20,000 nt of DNA from an uncultured virus (IMG/VR IMGVR_UViG_3300037467_001324). Taxonomy: Duplodnaviria > Heunggongvirae > Uroviricota > Caudoviricetes. The translations under genes were made by a program, and so were the position numbers. Below the pieces are notes generated by a model. It searched no databases. It saw only the letters and a program-made list of their open reading frames with translations, and had not been told where the DNA came from. Of the stretch, positions 6,199 to 17,792 are shown in pieces. Where the stretch lies: IMG/VR virus record IMGVR_UViG_3300037467_001324; one strand, 5' to 3'. How positions within the stretch are numbered: the stretch's first letter is position 1; each line of letters starts with the position of its first letter.

Positions 6199-6714
6199 TT
6201 AGCGGCCTAAGCCAGCAATGACGCTCCAACCGTTGCATTCGGTTACGCGGTCGCGCCGCCGCGGCGTTTTCGAGCCTCGCGACCGGCGATCGTCCAAGAA
6301 CATCCAGCAGATTTCGGGTCGACCATTGACCTCCGGAGTGCGTGACCAGAGCTCGGGGTCGAGCCAGAAAGCGGGGTCGCCAGGCTGCCACGGGGCGCTC
6401 AGTTCGAGTCCCGATTTGACCGCAGGGAGTGGCTTCGGCTCAGCTCGAGCGGCCCAACCGAGCTTCCATCCATATTGCTCGGTCCAGATGCGATAGCAGC
6501 CGCCGAAGCAGTCGTTGATGTTCTCCTCGCACCAGAACCGCTGACAGGTCTCGCAGCCCATCACGCTGAGGCCGCAGTTGTACAGCTTCGTGCCGCACGC
6601 CGGGCAGCGCATCATGTCGAGGATCTGGTCGAACGCATCGTAGTTCATGGGGAAGCCGCGGCGCGCGACCCATTGCCGGCGACGTCGCTCGAGGGAGGAC
6701 AGAAGGCTCAACAT
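6199..6714 (-). CDS. Cys/Trp-rich putative zinc-binding protein (start uncertain: 6714 leaderless, or 6648)
   Basis: CPACG...CETC...C motifs; ATG 6714 lies at the predicted TSS of TTGACC-16-TATGCT. Confidence 0.6.
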   Translation of the reverse strand: MLSLLSSLERRRRQWVARRGFPMNYDAFDQILDMMRCPACGTKLYNCGLSVMGCETCQRFWCEENINDCFGGCYRIWTEQYGWKLGWAARAEPKPLPAVKSGLELSAPWQPGDPAFWLDPELWSRTPEVNGRPEICWMFLDDRRSRGSKTPRRRDRVTECNGWSVIAGLGR

Positions 6715-6721
6715 GGACGCA

Positions 6722-6786
6722 AGCATAAGCGAAAAAGTGAGCCGGTCAATTCTTTGTTGACTGACGGTTGAGTCGGACATATACCG
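6722..6786. promoter_or_regulatory. Back-to-back divergent promoters sharing the GTCAA-N7-TTGAC palindrome
   Basis: Rightward TTGACT (6757-6762)-17-TATACC (6780-6785); leftward TTGACC (6749-6744)-16-TATGCT (6727-6722). Confidence 0.65.
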
Positions 6787-6790
6787 ATTC

Positions 6791-7583
6791 GCAGGTCATG
6801 GCACTGCTGCTTGAGCAGCTAGGTCGACACGGTACACCCGCCCGAGGCGGGGACTCCGGCATCTCCCCGAGGCCACAAGGGAGTTGCACAACAGCGCCGC
6901 TGCGGGGTCCTCCCCTTTGCCTTGCAGCGGCGCTTAGAGTTTCAGACTGCCCTGAGTTCCACGACGAAGCGGCGACGGCCAAATCGTGAGATGGAGCAGG
7001 AGCGGCTAGGGCGGCGGGAACCTTGTTCAAGCGAATCGCCGCCCTACGAGTTTGCCGGAGCGTCCTTTGCGTGTCCAACGGGACCGGGTCGTTAGGCGAA
7101 AGCGGGTTCCGACCGCGAAATCGGACGCCTTACCGGACCGCGAGACCCGGTATGACAGCCGGAAAGAACGGTGCTGCGGTTCCGGAGCCGTAGTCGAGGC
7201 GGGAGAGGCAAACCTTCGCGGTCTCGACCAGTTTCAGAGGTGAGCCTCCCCACGGCGCCGGAATCGAACCCCGCCGTTACCGGGCTTACCGCCTCCCACG
7301 GGGACAAGAGGCGGGCTGTGTTCGGCCAGTCAATCTATCGAGACCGCAGGAGCTCGATTAGACCGAACAACTCCTGCTCATTTGCAGGTCGCAGCGGACG
7401 AGGCTTAGGCGCGATTGCTTCGCAGCTGACGTGGAAACGCTCAGGGGCGGTGCAAACCGGAAACGGTCACAAAGCGGTGGGTAGCGTGCGGCTGACCAGA
7501 CTTGCGGTGACCCTGGTCCGCGAGGTTAAAGCTCGACTGGTCAGTCATCCCCTACGGAGAACGCAGTCCGCCAGGGTCACCTT
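6791..7583 (+). ncRNA. Candidate large (~800 nt) structured phage ncRNA with multiple pseudoknots; family not recognised
   Basis: No credible ORF; own promoter; nested long-range helices; G-U pairs consistent only with the + strand; GNRA tetraloops; 3'-terminal pseudoknot. Confidence 0.7.
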
Positions 7584-7678
7584 AAAAATTGGTCCCTGGG
7601 CCGCGTCGCTAACCCGCGAAAATTCGGAAATCTAACACCTTGAGTCGCAATCTTGCATACATTTTTGGGACAATCGGC

Positions 7679-10177
7679 TCACCCGATGAGATCGGCTTCC
7701 TCGAGCGGCGTCACCCTGACATAGGTGCGCTGCCGACCGTAAGCGCCGTGAACGACAGGACTCGCCTGCTGCCAACTGGACGCGATGGCAGCCTTTGACA
7801 TGGCGCGCGCGATCGCTTGCTGGTTGGCAGCTGTGTAGCTGCGTAGATCGCCGCGGAGACACTCGACCCAAATCTGCGGGAGGCACACCTTGTCGCGGTA
7901 GCGCGGCTTCTGGTCCTTATCGAGGTCGTCGAAGCCGCCATCATTGATCGGTGCTGCCAGCCAGGCAGCAATGACGCCGGCCATCCCATCGTCGCTCGTT
8001 TCCATGCGACGTGATTCTTGAAGCCCTGCGGCAATGGCGCGCGATTCATCGTCGCGCAGATGCAGCGGCAGCGTGCCAACGGGTTGAGCAGCCCGCATCT
8101 GCCGGTAGAACAGCACTGCCTCAGCCCATAACTGGTCGACATTGCGCTCCAGCTTCGCGGTATCGATCTCAGCGACGTGGCACGGCATCGGCCAGAAGCG
8201 GCGGCCGCCCGTGTCGTCCTTGAGATATTCGCGGTCGTTGGTCGAGCCGATGAAAATGCACTGCCGCGGGAACTCGCCGGCGCGACGGGCATAGGCGAGG
8301 CGCGCGCGGTCCTTCTTGCGGCTGATGAACGCCTTGATGGCGCGCACGTCCGACCGCTGGAAGCCGGTCAGCTCCGGCAGTTCGAGGATCCACGCGCCCT
8401 GCATTAGCTCGATCATCATTTTTGGGTCGTGGAAATCGCCGTCGAGCTCGGCGAACCACTTGCGGCCGAGTATCTCGATGAAGGTCGACTTGCGCTTGCC
8501 TTGGAGACCCTCGAGGATGACGGCAAAATCGAACTTGTGGCCGGGTTCGAAGATGCGTGTAACCGCGGCAGTCATCATCAATCGCGCGATGTCCAGTGTG
8601 TACGGGTTCGGCTCCGCGGCGAGATAGTCGACGAACAGGCGCTCGACGCGCCGCGTGCCGTCCCATTTGAGGCCGTTGAGGTACTCACGCACCGGATGAA
8701 AGGCGTGGTCGTTCGCCGCAATGACGATCGCCGCTTTGAGATCGCGGTCTGACACCTTGATGCCGTAACCGCCCTGGGTCCGCGGCGCTTCGATCAGCGC
8801 CCGCATTGCGAAATCACGGTCGTCGGACCACAGGCTGCCATTCAGCGGGTCGGCGACGTCCCAAATGCGGCCCTCGAGCTGCACAACAGGCTTCGCCTGG
8901 TTCTTGCGCCGCGGTTCCTTGTAGCCGGGCGAGATGCGCTGGACGGTCTCCTGTGTGAACTCATTGATTTGCGCGAGGCCGACGAACCGAGGGTCGTTGC
9001 GGACGATCAGTTTGACGTTGTGAAGGGTCGGCCGGAACGCGCCTTCCTCGTTCACCTCCATCAGCGAAATCCACCCGAGACCGGCCTCGGCGCCGGCAGC
9101 GAGCACGGACTCGAAATCGTTCCCGGTGGATGGTCCGCCGATCAACGCATCGATGTCGTCGTCGGCTTCCTCCTCATCCTCATCCTCGTCGGCACCTGGC
9201 TCATCGTCGTCGATGTCGTCGAAGGCCTGGAACATCCGGACCTGGTTGGCGACCGCCTTGAGCGTTGCCATGCGCACGGAGTTGGGTTTTTGACGGAAGC
9301 TGTTCCAGACGACTCGCTGGTCCTTCTCGTCGAATTTCGCCGACTGCTCCGAGAACTCCTTCCAGATGTCATAACCGATCTCGTCGCCGCCGAACTCGTG
9401 GTGCAGCGCCATGCCGACCGTCAGCCAACCGTCGCGATCCTCGCAGTATTCCTCGATTGGCAGATCATCGAGGATAGCTTGAGCCTCGTCCTCGGTGAGA
9501 CCGAGCGGCGGCTTTAGGTCGAGGCTGTCCGCGGATGCCGCGTTGTCGAGCATCCCCAATTCTTCAAGCCGTGCGGCCGGGATGCGTGGAAATAGCCCGA
9601 GCATGAGCTCGTCGAGATCGACAGCACGTTCCCAAAGATAAGGTTTGCCCGTGTCGGGGTGAATCGACGGCGGCATAGCAACTTGCTTGCCGGTGCCGAA
9701 CAGCTCGATTTCCCAATCGCGTTTCTTGACCTCACGCCCGAGCTTCTCATCATAGACCATCTTGAAGGTCTCGCTGCGGGCGAGCTTCTTCGACGGGAAC
9801 GCCTTCTCACAGGCAAAATAATAGTGGCGCGACGGTCCGCCTGATCCGGAGATGACGCTCGGAACGCTGTCGGCGATCGCCGGAAACAGCTCGTCGAGTT
9901 TTGCGCGAGCCTCGTCAGCGTAAGCAGGATCGCGGATGTCCAGGTCGATGGCATGGAGGTAGGAGCCATCCACCAACTGCGAGACCTCGCCGAGGCGCAC
10001 GCCGACATTAACGCCGGGCGAGTGCCGTCGCCGAAGCTGCTCGAGCGTGGCGACCGGCTTGGTTGACCAATCCTCGCCGATAGGGCGCTTCGATTTGGGA
10101 TGCAGCCAGTGAATCGCAAAGCCGGCCTCACGGAGAGGGCCGATTTCTGCCAACACCTGTTCGTCAAAGGCAGTCAT
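7679..10177 (-). CDS. Primase-helicase: bifunctional Prim-Pol (AEP) + PriCT-2 + VirE/VapE-like SF3 helicase
   Basis: NVGVRLG, AIDLD, RHYYF, QVAMPPSIHPDTGKPYLW (Prim-Pol); DRDGWLTVGMALHHEF...WKEFS (PriCT-2); LEGLQGKRKST Walker A, FIGSTN, DTGGRRFWP (VirE). Confidence 0.95.
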   Translation of the reverse strand: MTAFDEQVLAEIGPLREAGFAIHWLHPKSKRPIGEDWSTKPVATLEQLRRRHSPGVNVGVRLGEVSQLVDGSYLHAIDLDIRDPAYADEARAKLDELFPAIADSVPSVISGSGGPSRHYYFACEKAFPSKKLARSETFKMVYDEKLGREVKKRDWEIELFGTGKQVAMPPSIHPDTGKPYLWERAVDLDELMLGLFPRIPAARLEELGMLDNAASADSLDLKPPLGLTEDEAQAILDDLPIEEYCEDRDGWLTVGMALHHEFGGDEIGYDIWKEFSEQSAKFDEKDQRVVWNSFRQKPNSVRMATLKAVANQVRMFQAFDDIDDDEPGADEDEDEEEADDDIDALIGGPSTGNDFESVLAAGAEAGLGWISLMEVNEEGAFRPTLHNVKLIVRNDPRFVGLAQINEFTQETVQRISPGYKEPRRKNQAKPVVQLEGRIWDVADPLNGSLWSDDRDFAMRALIEAPRTQGGYGIKVSDRDLKAAIVIAANDHAFHPVREYLNGLKWDGTRRVERLFVDYLAAEPNPYTLDIARLMMTAAVTRIFEPGHKFDFAVILEGLQGKRKSTFIEILGRKWFAELDGDFHDPKMMIELMQGAWILELPELTGFQRSDVRAIKAFISRKKDRARLAYARRAGEFPRQCIFIGSTNDREYLKDDTGGRRFWPMPCHVAEIDTAKLERNVDQLWAEAVLFYRQMRAAQPVGTLPLHLRDDESRAIAAGLQESRRMETSDDGMAGVIAAWLAAPINDGGFDDLDKDQKPRYRDKVCLPQIWVECLRGDLRSYTAANQQAIARAMSKAAIASSWQQASPVVHGAYGRQRTYVRVTPLEEADLIG

Positions 10178-11800: not shown

Positions 11801-12033
11801 ACCGGGAACTTAATCCCTGCACAGATTGCCCGTTTCGGGCTGAACTGAATATCGAGCACGCAATGCTGCGTTCGCAGGTCGAAGCCGGTCAATGGGTTCC
11901 CTGCAAGAACACCCTTCGAGCTCCTGCTGACGGCAGCTTCCAGGCGAAGATCGAAGCCTGGCGACAGGAGGAAGAATGCGCTGGCGCTCGGATGTGGCGG
12001 CGTGATCGACAGCTGCCCGCTATCGCCGCGTGA
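11797..12033 (+). CDS. Small Cys-containing protein (PCTDCPFR...PC...CAG)
   Basis: ORF track with start at ATG 11797; GAGG SD; GTGA overlap with the DUF2800 gene. Confidence 0.7.
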   Translation: MNRELNPCTDCPFRAELNIEHAMLRSQVEAGQWVPCKNTLRAPADGSFQAKIEAWRQEEECAGARMWRRDRQLPAIAA

Positions 12034-13214
12034 TCGCACACGCGAAACTGTCGCCCTCCGGCGCTGACCGATGGATGGTCTGCCCCGGTAGCGTTGCCGC
12101 CGAGGAAGGCCTCCCCGACGAAACCAGCGAGGAAGCCGCCGAAGGCACCTTCGCGCACATGATTAGCGAGGACTGCCTCGCGCTAGGCTTGGACCCTTAC
12201 GATTTCATCGGTCACCGAGCTACCGTCGAAGGCCATTCATTCGAGTGGGACGAGGAGGACGCAGACAACCTCGCGTTCGGCATTTCGCAGATTCGCTCGT
12301 TCGGTGGGCAATTGTACGGCGAGCAGCGCGTCGATCTCACTCACTGGCTTGGCGACGATCAGTTTGGCACACTGGACCGCGCAATCATTCTGCCCGACCT
12401 CATCGTCATCGACGACCTGAAATGGGGTCGCGGGATCCCGGTCAGCCCGGTCGAGAACCGACAACTGTCGCTATATGGACTCGGCTTCTGGCGTGACATC
12501 GCCCGCCATCAGACCAACGCAACTGATTTCCTCATCATCATCGATCAGCCCCGATGCAGTGGCGGCGGAGGCGAATGGCGGACGACACTCGATCAGCTGC
12601 TCGCGTTCGGCGAGGAAGCGCGCGGTGCCGCTGAGCGTACCCGCGATCCCAACGCACCGCGCGTCGCGAGCGAGAAGGGGTGCCGCTTTTGCAAGCGCCG
12701 CGAAGCACCCGGTGGATGTTCGACGCTCGATATGTTCATGCTCGATTTGTTCGGAAAGCAGTTCGACGACCTGGACGACGAAATTATGGTTGGCGGACCA
12801 ATGGAGCTGCCGGTCGTCGTTACGCCCGAACGCAGGAGCTTCATTCTCGATAACCGCAAGCTGTGCGAATCGTGGTTCGACAAGCTCCATGCTCAGGCGC
12901 TCGATGATGCGCTCCACGGGCGCCCATGCGGCGGCAAGAAAGCAGTCGAGGGCCGCAAGTTGGCCGACAAATGGAAGAACCTAGACGACGCTGACATCGC
13001 GCTCCTGCTGATGCTCGGCGACGGCCGCCACAATCTCAAGCTCAAGACACCGACTCAGGTGACGAAAGAACTCAAGCTCAAGGACAACATTCCGCCTGAG
13101 CTGGAGCAGCTGATCGAACGCGGACAGCGAAAGCCGACGCTCGTCAGCGAGCAGGATGCTCGACCTGCAATGCTGATTAACCTCGAGCAGATGTTCGACG
13201 ACCTGGACACTTAG
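12030..13214 (+). CDS. DUF2800 family Cas4-like PD-(D/E)xK exonuclease
   Basis: HAKLSPSGADRWMVCPGS, AAEGTFAH, FGTLD, DLKWGRG, QLSLY, CRFC...C (four Cys, possible Fe-S ligands). Confidence 0.92.
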   Translation: MIAHAKLSPSGADRWMVCPGSVAAEEGLPDETSEEAAEGTFAHMISEDCLALGLDPYDFIGHRATVEGHSFEWDEEDADNLAFGISQIRSFGGQLYGEQRVDLTHWLGDDQFGTLDRAIILPDLIVIDDLKWGRGIPVSPVENRQLSLYGLGFWRDIARHQTNATDFLIIIDQPRCSGGGGEWRTTLDQLLAFGEEARGAAERTRDPNAPRVASEKGCRFCKRREAPGGCSTLDMFMLDLFGKQFDDLDDEIMVGGPMELPVVVTPERRSFILDNRKLCESWFDKLHAQALDDALHGRPCGGKKAVEGRKLADKWKNLDDADIALLLMLGDGRHNLKLKTPTQVTKELKLKDNIPPELEQLIERGQRKPTLVSEQDARPAMLINLEQMFDDLDT

Positions 13215-13972: not shown

Positions 13973-14017
13973 TCGGCCACCGCGGGGTTCGGAGCCATCA
14001 TCTCCCGCGGTGGCCGA
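13973..14017 (+). promoter_or_regulatory. 14-bp stem hairpin between a GAGGAGG SD and the polymerase start codon
   Basis: TCGGCCACCGCGGG / CCCGCGGTGGCCGA perfect stem; no U-tract. Confidence 0.7.
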
Positions 14018-14026
14018 CACTGCTGA

Positions 14027-15946
14027 ATGACGAAGCAGCCCGTCGCTTGCGACATTGAATGCTATCGGAACTATTTCCTCGTCGGTCTCAAGCGGATCAG
14101 CGACGGCACGCTGCTGCAATTTGAGTTTTCCGAGCGGTCGCCGCTCGACAAGGAGCGGCTCAAGCGAATCCTGCTCAACCACCGAGTCATCACCTTCAAC
14201 GGTCTGACCTATGATGTCCCGCTGATTTACTACGCGCTCGAGGGCGCGACCAACGAGCAACTCAAGCGGGCGAGCGACCGCATCATTCAGGGCAATGTCA
14301 AGTATTGGGACGTCGAGGACCTGCTCGGCATCCGCATTCCGCGCGAGCTCGATCATATCGATCTTATCGAGCCTCAACCGAACGCCTTCGCGGCGTTGAA
14401 GCTGCTCGCCGGTCGACTGCACTCGCGCACGTTGCAGGACTTGCCTTACGAGCACGACACGATCCTGACGCACGAGCAAATGGACGATGTTGCCGATTAC
14501 AACGGCCACGATCTCGATGACACAATCGACCTGTTCCATGCGCTCAAGGACCGCCTTGAGCTGCGCGAGGCGCTCGGACGGCAATATCTCGAGAACAATC
14601 CTCGCGGCTTCATGTCGAAATCGGATGCGCAGATTGGCGAGGCCATCATCAAGCGCGAGGTCGAGAAGGTCACCGGGCAGAAGGTAAAGAAGGAGCAGAC
14701 GCGCAACGGGGAAACCTTCCCGTACCGCGCGCCGGAGTGGCTCAAGTTCGAGCATCCGGAATTGGTCGAGGTGATGCGCCGCCTGGCCGACACCGAGTTC
14801 GTCGTGAAGGCGAACGGCAAGGTGGATATGCCGCCGTTCCTGCACAATCGCGCCGTTCGTATCGGCGAGACCGAGTACGCGATGGGGATTGGTGGTCTGC
14901 ACTCGACCGAGAAGGAGCGAGCTGTCGTCGCCGACGATGAGCATGTCCTCATCGACTTTGACGTTGCGTCCTACTACCCGGCCATCATCATCGGCTCGGG
15001 CCTTTATCCGAAATCGCTCGGACGGCCATTCATCCAGGTGTTCGACAAGATCCGGCAGCAGCGCGTCGCAGCGAAGCGGGCCGGCGACACGACGACCGCC
15101 GAGGGTCTGAAAATCGCCCTGAACGGCTGCTTCGGCAAGCTCGGTAGCCCTTATTCCATCCTTTACGCGCCGCACCTGATGATCGCGGTGACACTGACGG
15201 GCCAGCTGGCGCTGCTTATGCTCATAGAGTGGGCGGAAGCAGCAGGCATCAAGGTCGTCTCAGGGAACACAGACGGTGTCGTGTTCCACTGTCCGGTCGA
15301 TCTCGAGCCGAAGCTCATGGAACTGACGAAGCGGTGGGAGGAGCAGACCGGTTTTGAACTCGAGTCCACGCGGTACTCGGGTCTCTATAGCCAAAGCGTC
15401 AACAGCTACATCGCCATCAAGGAGAACGGGAAGGCGAAGCGGAAAGGACCGCTCAGCAACCCGCTCAAAGAAACGCCTCCGGACCTGCGCACGCAGATGA
15501 TGACGTCGCCGAGCATGAACGTCTGCGCAGACGCAGTCGTCGACTGGCTGACGAAAGGGATTCCCGTCGAGCAAACCATCCGCGAGCGCGACGACATCCG
15601 CGATTTTGTGACGGTCGTGAAGGTCGATGGTGGTGGCACCTGGCGCGGGAAATATCTCGGCAAATACGTTCGGTTCATCTGGTCAAAGGATGGCGACCCG
15701 ATTCTGTCGAAGAAGGCCCATCCGACCACCGGCAATCATAAGAAGGTCAGCAAGAGCGACGGCTGCCGCCCGGTCATGGTGCTGCCTGACGAGCTGCCAA
15801 TCGACATCGATTATGACCGCTACATCGCCGAGGCGCGCGAAATCCTCATGGCAATCGGCGCCGACCGACGCCCGCCGCCGCAGGTGAAGGTGCGCGTGTA
15901 TGCGGCGCAGCGGTACGATTGGTTGGCGCTGGCGATCGCGGCATGA
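14027..15946 (+). CDS. Family B DNA polymerase with 3'-5' exonuclease domain
   Basis: ExoI CDIECY, ExoII FNGLTYD, ExoIII YNGHD; polymerase motifs DFDVASYYP, KIALNGCFGK, SGNTDG. Confidence 0.92.
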   Translation: MTKQPVACDIECYRNYFLVGLKRISDGTLLQFEFSERSPLDKERLKRILLNHRVITFNGLTYDVPLIYYALEGATNEQLKRASDRIIQGNVKYWDVEDLLGIRIPRELDHIDLIEPQPNAFAALKLLAGRLHSRTLQDLPYEHDTILTHEQMDDVADYNGHDLDDTIDLFHALKDRLELREALGRQYLENNPRGFMSKSDAQIGEAIIKREVEKVTGQKVKKEQTRNGETFPYRAPEWLKFEHPELVEVMRRLADTEFVVKANGKVDMPPFLHNRAVRIGETEYAMGIGGLHSTEKERAVVADDEHVLIDFDVASYYPAIIIGSGLYPKSLGRPFIQVFDKIRQQRVAAKRAGDTTTAEGLKIALNGCFGKLGSPYSILYAPHLMIAVTLTGQLALLMLIEWAEAAGIKVVSGNTDGVVFHCPVDLEPKLMELTKRWEEQTGFELESTRYSGLYSQSVNSYIAIKENGKAKRKGPLSNPLKETPPDLRTQMMTSPSMNVCADAVVDWLTKGIPVEQTIRERDDIRDFVTVVKVDGGGTWRGKYLGKYVRFIWSKDGDPILSKKAHPTTGNHKKVSKSDGCRPVMVLPDELPIDIDYDRYIAEAREILMAIGADRRPPPQVKVRVYAAQRYDWLALAIAA

Positions 15947-16296
15947 CGCGCGGCAATGCACAGCAGCGTCGCCAGCGATGGCTGCGATACGAATGGTTCC
16001 GCGACCCCGCCTGCCGATATTGTGGACGAATCACCAAATTGTTGGGTGACGATGAGCCTGTAAGCGACGACATGGCGACCTGCGACCACTACGTTCCGCA
16101 GGCTAAAGAGGGGCCTGACAAGCCGTTCAATTGGCGATTGAGTTGCCGAAAATGCAACGCCGACAAAGGTGACATGCTACCTGAAATGTGGCTGCTCGTC
16201 GGGGAGGTGGACTTCACACCGCCTGTCATCGAACCTGTCGAAGCAAGAACTCCAACTGCGCTCGAGATGGCATTCCGCCGCGCCGGCCTCGGCTGA
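15943..16296 (+). CDS. HNH endonuclease
   Basis: CRYCG...TCDHYVP...N...CRKCNADKGD; ATGA overlap with the polymerase. Confidence 0.9.
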   Translation: MTRGNAQQRRQRWLRYEWFRDPACRYCGRITKLLGDDEPVSDDMATCDHYVPQAKEGPDKPFNWRLSCRKCNADKGDMLPEMWLLVGEVDFTPPVIEPVEARTPTALEMAFRRAGLG

Positions 16297-17792
16297 TGGA
16301 CACACAGACCGCCGTCGATTTCCTCCGGCTATCGGTACTCGGCGGACTCAACGCGCCGATAGGGCCGATTCCATTCGACCCTTACCACATCCGTAAGCGC
16401 CGGCTCCGTGACTATCAGGAGGAGATGATCCTCGAGGGCATCAGTTACATGCGCCTCGGAGTCCGGCGTATCCTGTTCCAGCTGCCGACCGGAGGCGGCA
16501 AGACCGTCATGGCGGCAGCGATGCACGGCAGCGCAATGGACCTAGCCCTGACATCGGAGTTCATCGTCCACCGCAAGGAACTCGTCGACCAGACGAGCCA
16601 CACGTTCACTCAGTTCGGGATCCCGCACGGTTTCATCGCGGCCGGACATCCGTTGCTCACTGACGAGCTCGTGTCGATCGCTGGCGTCGGAACCTTGGTC
16701 AATCGGCTCGAGCAAATGCTCCCGCCGAAGCTCGCCGTGGTCGACGAATGCCACCACGCGACGGCAGCCTCATGGCAGCGCGTCCTAGAGGCTTATGGCG
16801 AGTCCTTCGTCATCGGTCTCACCGCCACGCCGGAGCGGCTCGATGGTAAGGGCCTCGATGACCAGTTCGACGTGATGATTAAGGGTCCACCCGTCGCCGA
16901 ACTCATCGCTCGCGGCTACCTAGCGGATTTCGACTATTATGCGCCGGGGCAACCCGACCTCACCGGTATCCATACCACCGCAGGCGATTTCAACCGCGGC
17001 GAGATTGCCGAGCTGATGGATAAGCCGAAGCTCATCGGCGATGTCGTCGAGCATTATCTTCGGCTCGCTCCAGGTCAGGCGGGCATCGTGTTCGCAGCGA
17101 GCCGTGAGCACAGCCGCCACATGGCGGAGGCGTTCAACAGCCACGGGATTCGCGCGGCGCATGTCGACGGCACCATGCCGGACAAGGAGCGCGATCGCGT
17201 CGTCGCTGCCTTCCGTGCCGGCGAAATCAGCGTGATGACGAACGTGGACCTGTTCGGCGAAGGCTTTGACGTTCCTGGCATCGTTTATTGCGGTCTCGCG
17301 CGCCCGACGAAATCCCTGTCGCTGTTCATGCAGCAATGCGGCCGCGCGCTAAGGATGTTCGACGGTAAGCCTAACGCCATCCTCGCCGATCACGCCGGAA
17401 ACGTGCTGCGGCACGGTCTCCCCGACGACGAACGCGAATGGAGCCTCAAGGGTCGCGTCGTGCGGCAGCGCGGCCCAGGCGAGAATGACGCGCTCCCGGT
17501 TCGGCAGTGCAAGGTCTGCTTCCGCGTATCGCCGTCGACCGTGACTCAGTGTCCCGGCTGCGGCGAGGAGTTCCCCGTCCAGGCGCGCAAGCTCGAGCAA
17601 GAGGACGGCCAATTGACGAAGGTCGAGCGTGAGGCACTCAAGCGGCGACGTGCGATCGACCGTAAAATCGAGGAGCGCGCCTGCAAGAGTCCGGACGATT
17701 TCATCGCTCTAGCGAAGGCCCGCGGTTACGCCAACCCTCGAGGGTGGGCGAAGGTGCAATGGAAGCTGCGTAAAGGCGGGAAAATCCGATGA
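16296..17792 (+). CDS. Superfamily 2 DExH helicase with C-terminal zinc finger
   Basis: LRDYQ, LPTGGGKT, VDECHH, GLTATP, EGFDVP, QQCGRALR, CKVC...CPGC; TGATG coupling. Confidence 0.93.
   Translation: MDTQTAVDFLRLSVLGGLNAPIGPIPFDPYHIRKRRLRDYQEEMILEGISYMRLGVRRILFQLPTGGGKTVMAAAMHGSAMDLALTSEFIVHRKELVDQTSHTFTQFGIPHGFIAAGHPLLTDELVSIAGVGTLVNRLEQMLPPKLAVVDECHHATAASWQRVLEAYGESFVIGLTATPERLDGKGLDDQFDVMIKGPPVAELIARGYLADFDYYAPGQPDLTGIHTTAGDFNRGEIAELMDKPKLIGDVVEHYLRLAPGQAGIVFAASREHSRHMAEAFNSHGIRAAHVDGTMPDKERDRVVAAFRAGEISVMTNVDLFGEGFDVPGIVYCGLARPTKSLSLFMQQCGRALRMFDGKPNAILADHAGNVLRHGLPDDEREWSLKGRVVRQRGPGENDALPVRQCKVCFRVSPSTVTQCPGCGEEFPVQARKLEQEDGQLTKVEREALKRRRAIDRKIEERACKSPDDFIALAKARGYANPRGWAKVQWKLRKGGKIR

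Follow-up and report, generated by a model that had tools for sequence, protein, structure and literature searches.

The locus described here raises the question of whether a gap between two genes of an uncultured virus of the Caudoviricetes specifies a structured RNA and, if so, what constitutes the 3′ boundary of this RNA, an earlier note having proposed that a pseudoknot at 7490-7583 ends it. The window, which is the whole stretch of 20,000 nucleotides that was analysed (from IMG/VR record IMGVR_UViG_3300037467_001324), represents a phage replication module as judged from its gene content by Pfam and PHROG matches, and encodes a primase-helicase with Prim-Pol, PriCT-2 and VapE-like domains on the minus strand (7679-10177), an exonuclease (12030-13214), a DNA polymerase (14027-15946) and a helicase (16188-17792). 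DNA nearly identical to that of the window is present in soil and rhizosphere metagenome runs. The proposed RNA lies on the plus strand, convergent with the primase-helicase gene and divergent from a minus-strand gene (6199-6714) for a 171-residue protein of unassigned family, which carries CxxC...CxxC motifs and has no Pfam or PHROG match. The start of this gene was set at 6714 and not at 6780 because the homologue in a close relative, L012, begins at the aligned ATG, and the gap free of open reading frames therefore extends from 6715 to 7678. Elsewhere in the window, a 14-bp perfect inverted repeat at 13973-14017, located just upstream of the start codon of the DNA polymerase gene (14027), represents the longest perfect short-range helix.

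The relative L012 was found via its DNA polymerase (92% protein identity); its record, 68 kb in length, is that of a complete linear phage. Comparison with this phage established that the segment 6744-6808 is nearly identical in the two, whereas the flanking genes are only approximately 75% identical. Within this segment a promoter-like site, TTGACT-17 nt-TATACC, was read from the sequence at 6757-6785 on the plus strand, directed into the RNA; it was not listed by the promoter scan because position 6 of its -10 box is not a T. A promoter-like site is also present on the minus strand at 6749-6722, which would leave the mRNA of the 171-residue gene nearly leaderless, and the -35 boxes of the two divergent promoters stand back to back at 6744-6762. 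The premise that the gap specifies a structured plus-strand RNA was supported by conservation and covariation for 6790-7410, this being the core that is common to the window and L012 and in part to two proviruses, L083 and L084. The conserved 5′ domain (6790-6946, plus strand) includes a 16-bp hairpin (6893-6908/6919-6934) and, as compared to L012, exhibits one pair changed on both sides and two changes from G-U to G-C; its insertions and deletions relative to L012 are 25, 4, 1, 3 and 1 nt in length and the domain is therefore non-coding. A coding reading of the gap was rejected on the basis of these insertions and deletions, and frames of 154 and 110 residues were without a Pfam match. Folding of the whole gap (6781-7678) gave -404.8 kcal/mol for the plus strand (z -4.66, with none of 20 shuffles as good) and a z-score of -1.88 for the minus strand; the gap of L012, folded as a whole, was no better than its shuffles (z -0.54).

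The 5′ domain is followed in the window by a specific domain of 292 nt on the plus strand (6947-7238), which is flanked by two copies of AGTTTCAGA (6938-6946 and 7230-7238) and which the alignment shows to be missing from L012, while a soil contig from run X8 carries 197 unlike letters in place of window positions 6909-7239. The segment 6938-7238 thus has the appearance of an RNA insert that can be exchanged, with a length of 0, 197 or 292 nt, as far as can be judged from these alignments. From 7230 to approximately 7410 the window can be aligned with L012 once more, with 84% identity over 7230-7371. The soil contigs contain one variant that resembles L012 and a third variant with a different sequence after 7377. 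An exact-word scan also showed that part of the core is shared by the proviruses L083 and L084, which are otherwise unrelated to the window; there the core is flanked by an AlpA gene and an integrase gene, and, as in the window, it is preceded by a promoter-like site and is convergent with the gene that follows. The L083 record contains no relative of the primase. The window, L012 and L083 each harbour a single copy of the core per record. The RNA family is thereby sampled by three distinct sequences (window, L012 and L083) plus fragments.

The best conserved portion of the core (7230-7410, plus strand) comprises a junction, AGUUUCAGAGGUGAGCCUCCCCAC, together with nested helices and a pseudoknot. 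Both AGUUUCAGAGGUGAGCCUCCCCAC and GGGCUUAC are common to the window, L012 and L083, and the junction is an invariant stretch of 24 nt. The helices are formed by 7241-7246 with 7283-7288, by 7289-7295 with 7308-7314, by 7319-7325 with 7363-7369 as an outer helix, and by 7337-7342 with 7353-7358, all on the plus strand. The second of these is a hairpin with the invariant loop CCCACGGGGACAA, the sequences of its 7-bp stem being CCGCCUC/GAGGCGG (window), CUGCCGC/GCGGCAG (L012) and CGGCACC/GGUGUCG (L083). A covariance model derived solely from the sequences of the window and L012, containing three nested helices and leaving out the pseudoknot, aligned L083 end to end with a score of 32.3 bits, as compared to 11.4 bits for the best background match. 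When the four-helix module was examined across the three sequences, 94.9% of cells were paired and 10 pairs were changed on both sides, a result that none of 500 shuffles equalled. The soil variants add further paired changes, 7290C>T being accompanied by 7313G>A and 7294T>G by 7309A>C, and the G-U pairs of the core all occur on the plus strand. The invariant stretch UGAGCC(U) at 7241-7247 may pair either locally, with GGCUUA at 7283-7288, or with a distant AGGCUUA at 7400-7406, the latter involving a G-U pair in the window and a G-C pair in L012. A search for trans targets of the invariant stretches yielded no site common to the window and L012, and a T-arm-like GGAATCGAACC on the minus strand (7260-7270) was rejected, being neither conserved in L012 nor called by ARAGORN.

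The earlier note had also claimed a second pseudoknot within this core, in which the loop GCAGGAG (7346-7352) of the hairpin TCGAG/CTCGA (7338-7342/7353-7357) pairs with CTCCTGC (CUCCUGC in the RNA, 7371-7377), and it had named covariation in homologs as a check. The strings are placed correctly, and the claim was supported by base changes in both L012 and L083 that compensate one another. In L012 the pairing is GCACGGG with CCCGU(U)GC, where a change of G to C and one of A to G in the loop are both matched in the 3′ strand, and in L083 the corresponding columns pair as GCCCGG/CCGGGC even though the model used for the alignment was without the pseudoknot helix. Overall 18 of the 21 cells pair and three pairs are changed on both sides, values reached by 23 of 500 shuffles, and controls in which the helix was slid along the alignment were 30-57% paired. 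These comparisons support the second pseudoknot as real, within a small sample of three distinct sequences. It has the same topology as the classical H-type pseudoknot, with a spacer of 12-13 nt in the window and L083, and like the classical form it covaries.

Searches of wider scope returned little beyond these relatives. Scans with the primase protein reached only distant phages without similar DNA, the acidic word DEDEDEEE having dominated the first of these scans; in the loci so collected (L001-L011 and L067-L080) no similar DNA was present downstream of the primase and the core model R1 scored at most 10.5 bits. Scans of genome contigs for primase relatives found nothing, neither the gap nor the core had a BLAST match among isolated phages, plasmids or E. 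coli genomes, and an exact-word scan with a 20-mer from the 3′ candidate (helix 2, below) returned no match. The corresponding scan with TTCGGCCAGTCAATC returned 52 loci, of which the L012 contig was the sole real one. L081 (a 25-nt match) and L086 (a 20-nt match within a coding region) were rejected as chance matches, and records 18 and 20 of X9, which matched 7384-7521, were set aside as other organisms owing to short, low-identity matches and unlike flanks. Rfam 15 (4227 models, among them GOLLD, ROOL, HEARO, RNase P, tmRNA and introns) gave no match at gathering score over the whole window, only four chance-level matches for 6600-7800 at E values up to 10, and none in L081, L083 or L084 at E values up to 1. 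ARAGORN detected no tRNA or tmRNA. The motif word CCCACGGGGACAAG was not found in a literature search, and there was no match in six supplement files of a catalogue of structured phage RNAs (PMC10690425), whose further files 1, 2 and 4 may list the motif.

As regards the 3′ end, the earlier note described two crossing helices and inferred that they form a terminal pseudoknot, by which the mature 3′ end would be both defined and protected. Its reading of the sequence was accurate in each particular. Helix 1 pairs GCTGACCAG (7491-7499) with CTGGTCAGT (7537-7545) over 9 bp, with a wobble between G7491 and T7545, and extends to 10 bp through G7490-C7546 (7490-7499/7537-7546, plus strand, one G-U); helix 2 pairs GGTGACCCTGG (7506-7516) with CCAGGGTCACC (7571-7581) over a perfect 11 bp and reaches 12 bp through T7517-G7570 (7506-7517/7570-7581, plus strand); and TTAAAAATT follows helix 2 directly at 7582-7590. 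The four arms stand in the order helix 1, helix 2, helix 1, helix 2 (7490-7499, 7506-7517, 7537-7546 and 7570-7581), so that the two helices do cross. That they form an H-type pseudoknot capping a mature 3′ end near 7583 gains from the rarity of such an arrangement, the crossing pair occurring in one of 400 dinucleotide shuffles of 6715-7678. In a further test the loop and 66-nt flanks were shuffled 2000 times with helix 2 held fixed, and a crossing helix of at least 10 bp with at most one G-U was obtained in 2.6% of the shuffles (8.9% for at least 9 bp). The word TGGTC, however, occurs three times in 7485-7605 (at 7514, 7538 and 7590) as compared to 0.18 expected, so that GACCA at 7494 could pair with any of three copies; these compete with one another, the shuffles understate the chance of helix 1 and its apparent rarity is inflated. 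For the 5′ arm of helix 1, the segments 7513-7518 and 7589-7594 are the competing partners.

The predicted folds treat the two helices very differently. Helix 2 had a mean pair probability of 0.96-0.999 in every folded context, while that of helix 1 was at most 0.04 in the nested ensembles; in RNAs that extend beyond 7602 its 5′ arm is paired with 7589-7602, and its 3′ arm is unpaired to approximately 44%, which would leave the latter available to a pseudoknot. The span proposed for the terminal structure, taken alone (7486-7585), gave a z-score of -1.63, with 12 of 200 shuffles as good. Instead, helix 2 forms the tip stem of an irregular hairpin of 141 nt on the plus strand (7477-7617), which contains the 7490-7583 feature and extends 36 nt past the proposed 3′ end. 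Proceeding inward, its paired segments are GUGGGU/ACCCGC, AGCG/CGCU, UGCGGCU/GGCCGCG, GACCAG/UUGGUC and UUG/UAA, and then helix 2. The plus strand of 7470-7625 has a minimum free energy of -71.6 kcal/mol (z -4.78, with none of 200 shuffles as good) and the minus strand one of -64.0 kcal/mol (z -2.83, three of 200 as good), and five G-U pairs of the hairpin occur on the plus strand. The hairpin is present both in the minimum free energy fold and in the centroid of the whole gap, folds which are to be read with the caveat that such models are unreliable for long RNAs. Since nested folding models cannot score a pseudoknot, its energy was roughly estimated by taking the most stable fold in which helix 2 was imposed and the arms of helix 1 were left free, and by adding approximately -19.5 kcal/mol of stacking (the computed stack of the 10-bp helix 1 being -20.3) and a rough penalty of our own of 7-15 kcal/mol. 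By this rough estimate an RNA spanning 7477-7617 has about -57 to -65 kcal/mol with the pseudoknot as compared to -70.0 kcal/mol for the nested fold, and an RNA ending at 7585 has about -36 to -44 as compared to -38.3 kcal/mol. The viability of the 3′ pseudoknot thus depends on an RNA that stops short of approximately 7589. With an end at 7583-7590 the estimate can favour the pseudoknot, values of -41 to -44 kcal/mol being more stable than the nested -38.3 kcal/mol, and a pseudoknot is demonstrably used elsewhere in the same RNA (7346-7377). Against it stand the pairing beyond the proposed end and the greater stability of the nested fold there (-70.0 as compared to about -62 kcal/mol), and also the nature of the tail, which has no homologue among the relatives found and hence offers no covariation. 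Moreover, the UUAAAAAUU that follows the stem is not a terminator tail, and the candidate differs from a classical H-type pseudoknot in its long loops (6, 20 and 25 nt), the middle one of which may hold an additional hairpin, and in its competition with a more stable nested fold. Helix 1 is accordingly listed by us as an unproven alternative pairing, a terminal pseudoknot defining or protecting the mature end found no support, and we regard such a cap as quite improbable.

The tail in which the long hairpin lies is of a different character from the core. From approximately 7411 none of the relatives found has a matching segment, the divergence of L012 and the soil variants setting in at about 7377-7411, and nothing aligns between approximately 7410 and the primase stop codon, a distance of 268 nt in the window as against approximately 105 nt in L012; just one soil contig covers 7460-7610, where it is identical to the window. 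In all three sequences, nevertheless, a strong hairpin of unrelated sequence is located between the core and the convergent gene: in L012 it is CGCCGAC/GTCGGCG, and in L083 it is a perfect 15-bp stem (1625-1639/1705-1719) before the integrase gene. Because the RNA and the primase gene converge and all three sequences possess such a hairpin at this place, the explanation we tentatively favour, at somewhat less than an even chance, is that 7490-7583 represents the upper part of a 141-nt plus-strand hairpin that acts as the 3′ boundary of the transcript. The RNA would be transcribed from the conserved promoter-like site toward the 3′ end of the primase-helicase gene, and the long hairpin would halt or stall transcription and block 3′ exonucleases between the two convergent transcription units; helix 2 forms, and helix 1 is one among several competing pairings, which would require an RNA that ends before approximately 7589. 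We infer both the transcription of the tail and the boundary role of the hairpin, and the core RNA may alternatively end near 7410, with the tail lying outside it.

A boundary hairpin of this kind would resemble the terminal stem-loops of 3′ ends and factor-independent terminators in being a long, G+C-rich hairpin between converging units whose position is kept and whose sequence is not, but it differs from factor-independent terminators in its lack of a U-tract and, with 141 nt and internal loops, in its far greater length. A Rho-independent terminator was rejected on this ground, as UUAAAAAUU follows the stem at 7582 and GAAAAUUC follows the long hairpin at 7618, and a terminator scan of 6500-7900 listed no terminator-like site. 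Hairpins without a U-tail are nonetheless known to terminate transcription in some high-G+C bacteria. A dispersed repeat of the REP or BIME type was also considered, and 7460-7640 has no second copy in the 20-kb window or in the other loci examined. The tail could, on the other hand, be functionless filler between convergent genes, the helices being by-products of repeated self-complementary words, in keeping with its wholesale replacement among the three variants, with the single sequence available for the tail of the window and with the redundancy of the partners of helix 1. Such an origin is unlikely in our view, as a perfect 11-bp helix spanning at most 100 nt is rare (found in 2.75% of 400 shuffles of 6715-7678 that preserve dinucleotides), the 141-nt hairpin has a z-score of -4.78, and the three RNAs all carry a strong hairpin at the equivalent position.

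Two elements of the L083 provirus deserve separate description. The 15-bp stem at 1625-1719 encloses a tRNA T-arm-like CCGGGGTTCAATTCCCCGG approximately 75 nt from the end of the integrase gene and may represent a tRNA-derived remnant of an attachment site or a tRNA-like RNA module; neither ARAGORN nor Rfam makes a call in 1625-1719. Upstream of the RNA promoter, a short unit at 1236-1320 starts with GATTCGCG, resembling the 5′ end of the window RNA (GATTCGCAGG), and has a canonical terminator at its end (GGCCACCAGAGC...GCTCTGGTGGCC and then TTTCTTTTTT), and this unit may specify a separate small RNA.

The position of the tail beside a primase-helicase gene also invites an explanation at the level of DNA, namely a replication origin or operator in which repeated words would be bound and the A+T-rich stretch unwound in the service of that gene. 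The iteron origin of P4 (ori/crr) is of the type that lies beside a primase-helicase gene. A relative of the primase, L001 (48% identity), has at the same place, directly downstream of the primase in 6560-6990, at least six copies of GGTGGAAC(G/A)GG, which occur in either orientation, together with A+T-rich stretches, an arrangement that looks like a textbook iteron origin; its 7-mers reach up to six copies, and none of 300 shuffles was as repetitive. In the window, candidate binding sites are the inverted words GGTGACCCTGG (two copies), CTGACCAG (two copies) and TGGTC (three copies), repeated words in 7477-7617 exceed the shuffles (for 8-mers, 1% of 300 reach the observed number), and a 61-nt spacer that separates the long hairpin from the primase stop codon (7618-7678) has a GC content of 0.41 as compared to 0.61-0.64 around it, a feature that abuts the stop codon and is not specific by itself. 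The GC content of the genome is 0.61. The location directly downstream of the primase-helicase gene and the A+T-rich stretch are thus shared with L001, but the window is without a direct-repeat array, no 7-mer in 7411-7678 exceeding two copies and all of these being inverted pairs. Furthermore, the five G-U pairs and the difference in z-score between the strands favour an RNA fold of the plus strand, the repeats of the L012 tail are not above chance, and the core of L083 is situated beside an integrase gene in a record where no primase relative was found. An origin or operator accordingly appears to us about as doubtful as the terminal pseudoknot. The tail and the last approximately 130 residues of the primase-helicase are the parts least conserved as compared to L012 (approximately 50% identity for these residues and 76% for the rest), a pattern that would also suit a DNA element serving the primase, and because both are least conserved the C-terminal part of the protein may have been exchanged together with the non-coding tail. 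The similarity of the DNA of window and L012 stops at 7848, inside the segment encoding the primase C-terminus (7679-8070).

In the core four helices covary, the pseudoknot included, and the RNA occurs in two unrelated phage backgrounds; on the strength of these comparisons we consider it a candidate structured phage non-coding RNA, one for which there is no Rfam model and for which our searches found no published description. Its nearest counterparts may be sought among GOLLD and ROOL, which are large ornate phage-borne RNAs and which it resembles in being hundreds of nucleotides in length, phage-encoded and non-coding, with variable inserts, conserved unpaired stretches and a pseudoknot (drawn in part from PMC12286853). 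The RNA of the window differs from these in matching no Rfam model and in being represented by three distinct sequences, and for it no oligomer is recorded. A pseudoknot that caps the 3′ end would, if true, be a novel means by which RNAs of bacteria or phages set their ends, and the evidence falls short of it. A still more far-reaching scenario, which we hold to be very improbable, is that of a new class of large modular pseudoknotted RNAs, carried by virulent-type soil phages and by proviruses with integrase and AlpA genes, with a two-state switch at the 3′ end that controls replication. GACCA at 7494 would then choose among its three TGGTC partners to give either a compact pseudoknot cap, with an end at approximately 7583, or an extended hairpin, in which case transcription would read through antisense to the primase-helicase gene, and the folding of the RNA would be coupled to the control of replication. 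To our knowledge, large structured phage RNAs without an assigned function are few, and each new one therefore represents a useful test case.
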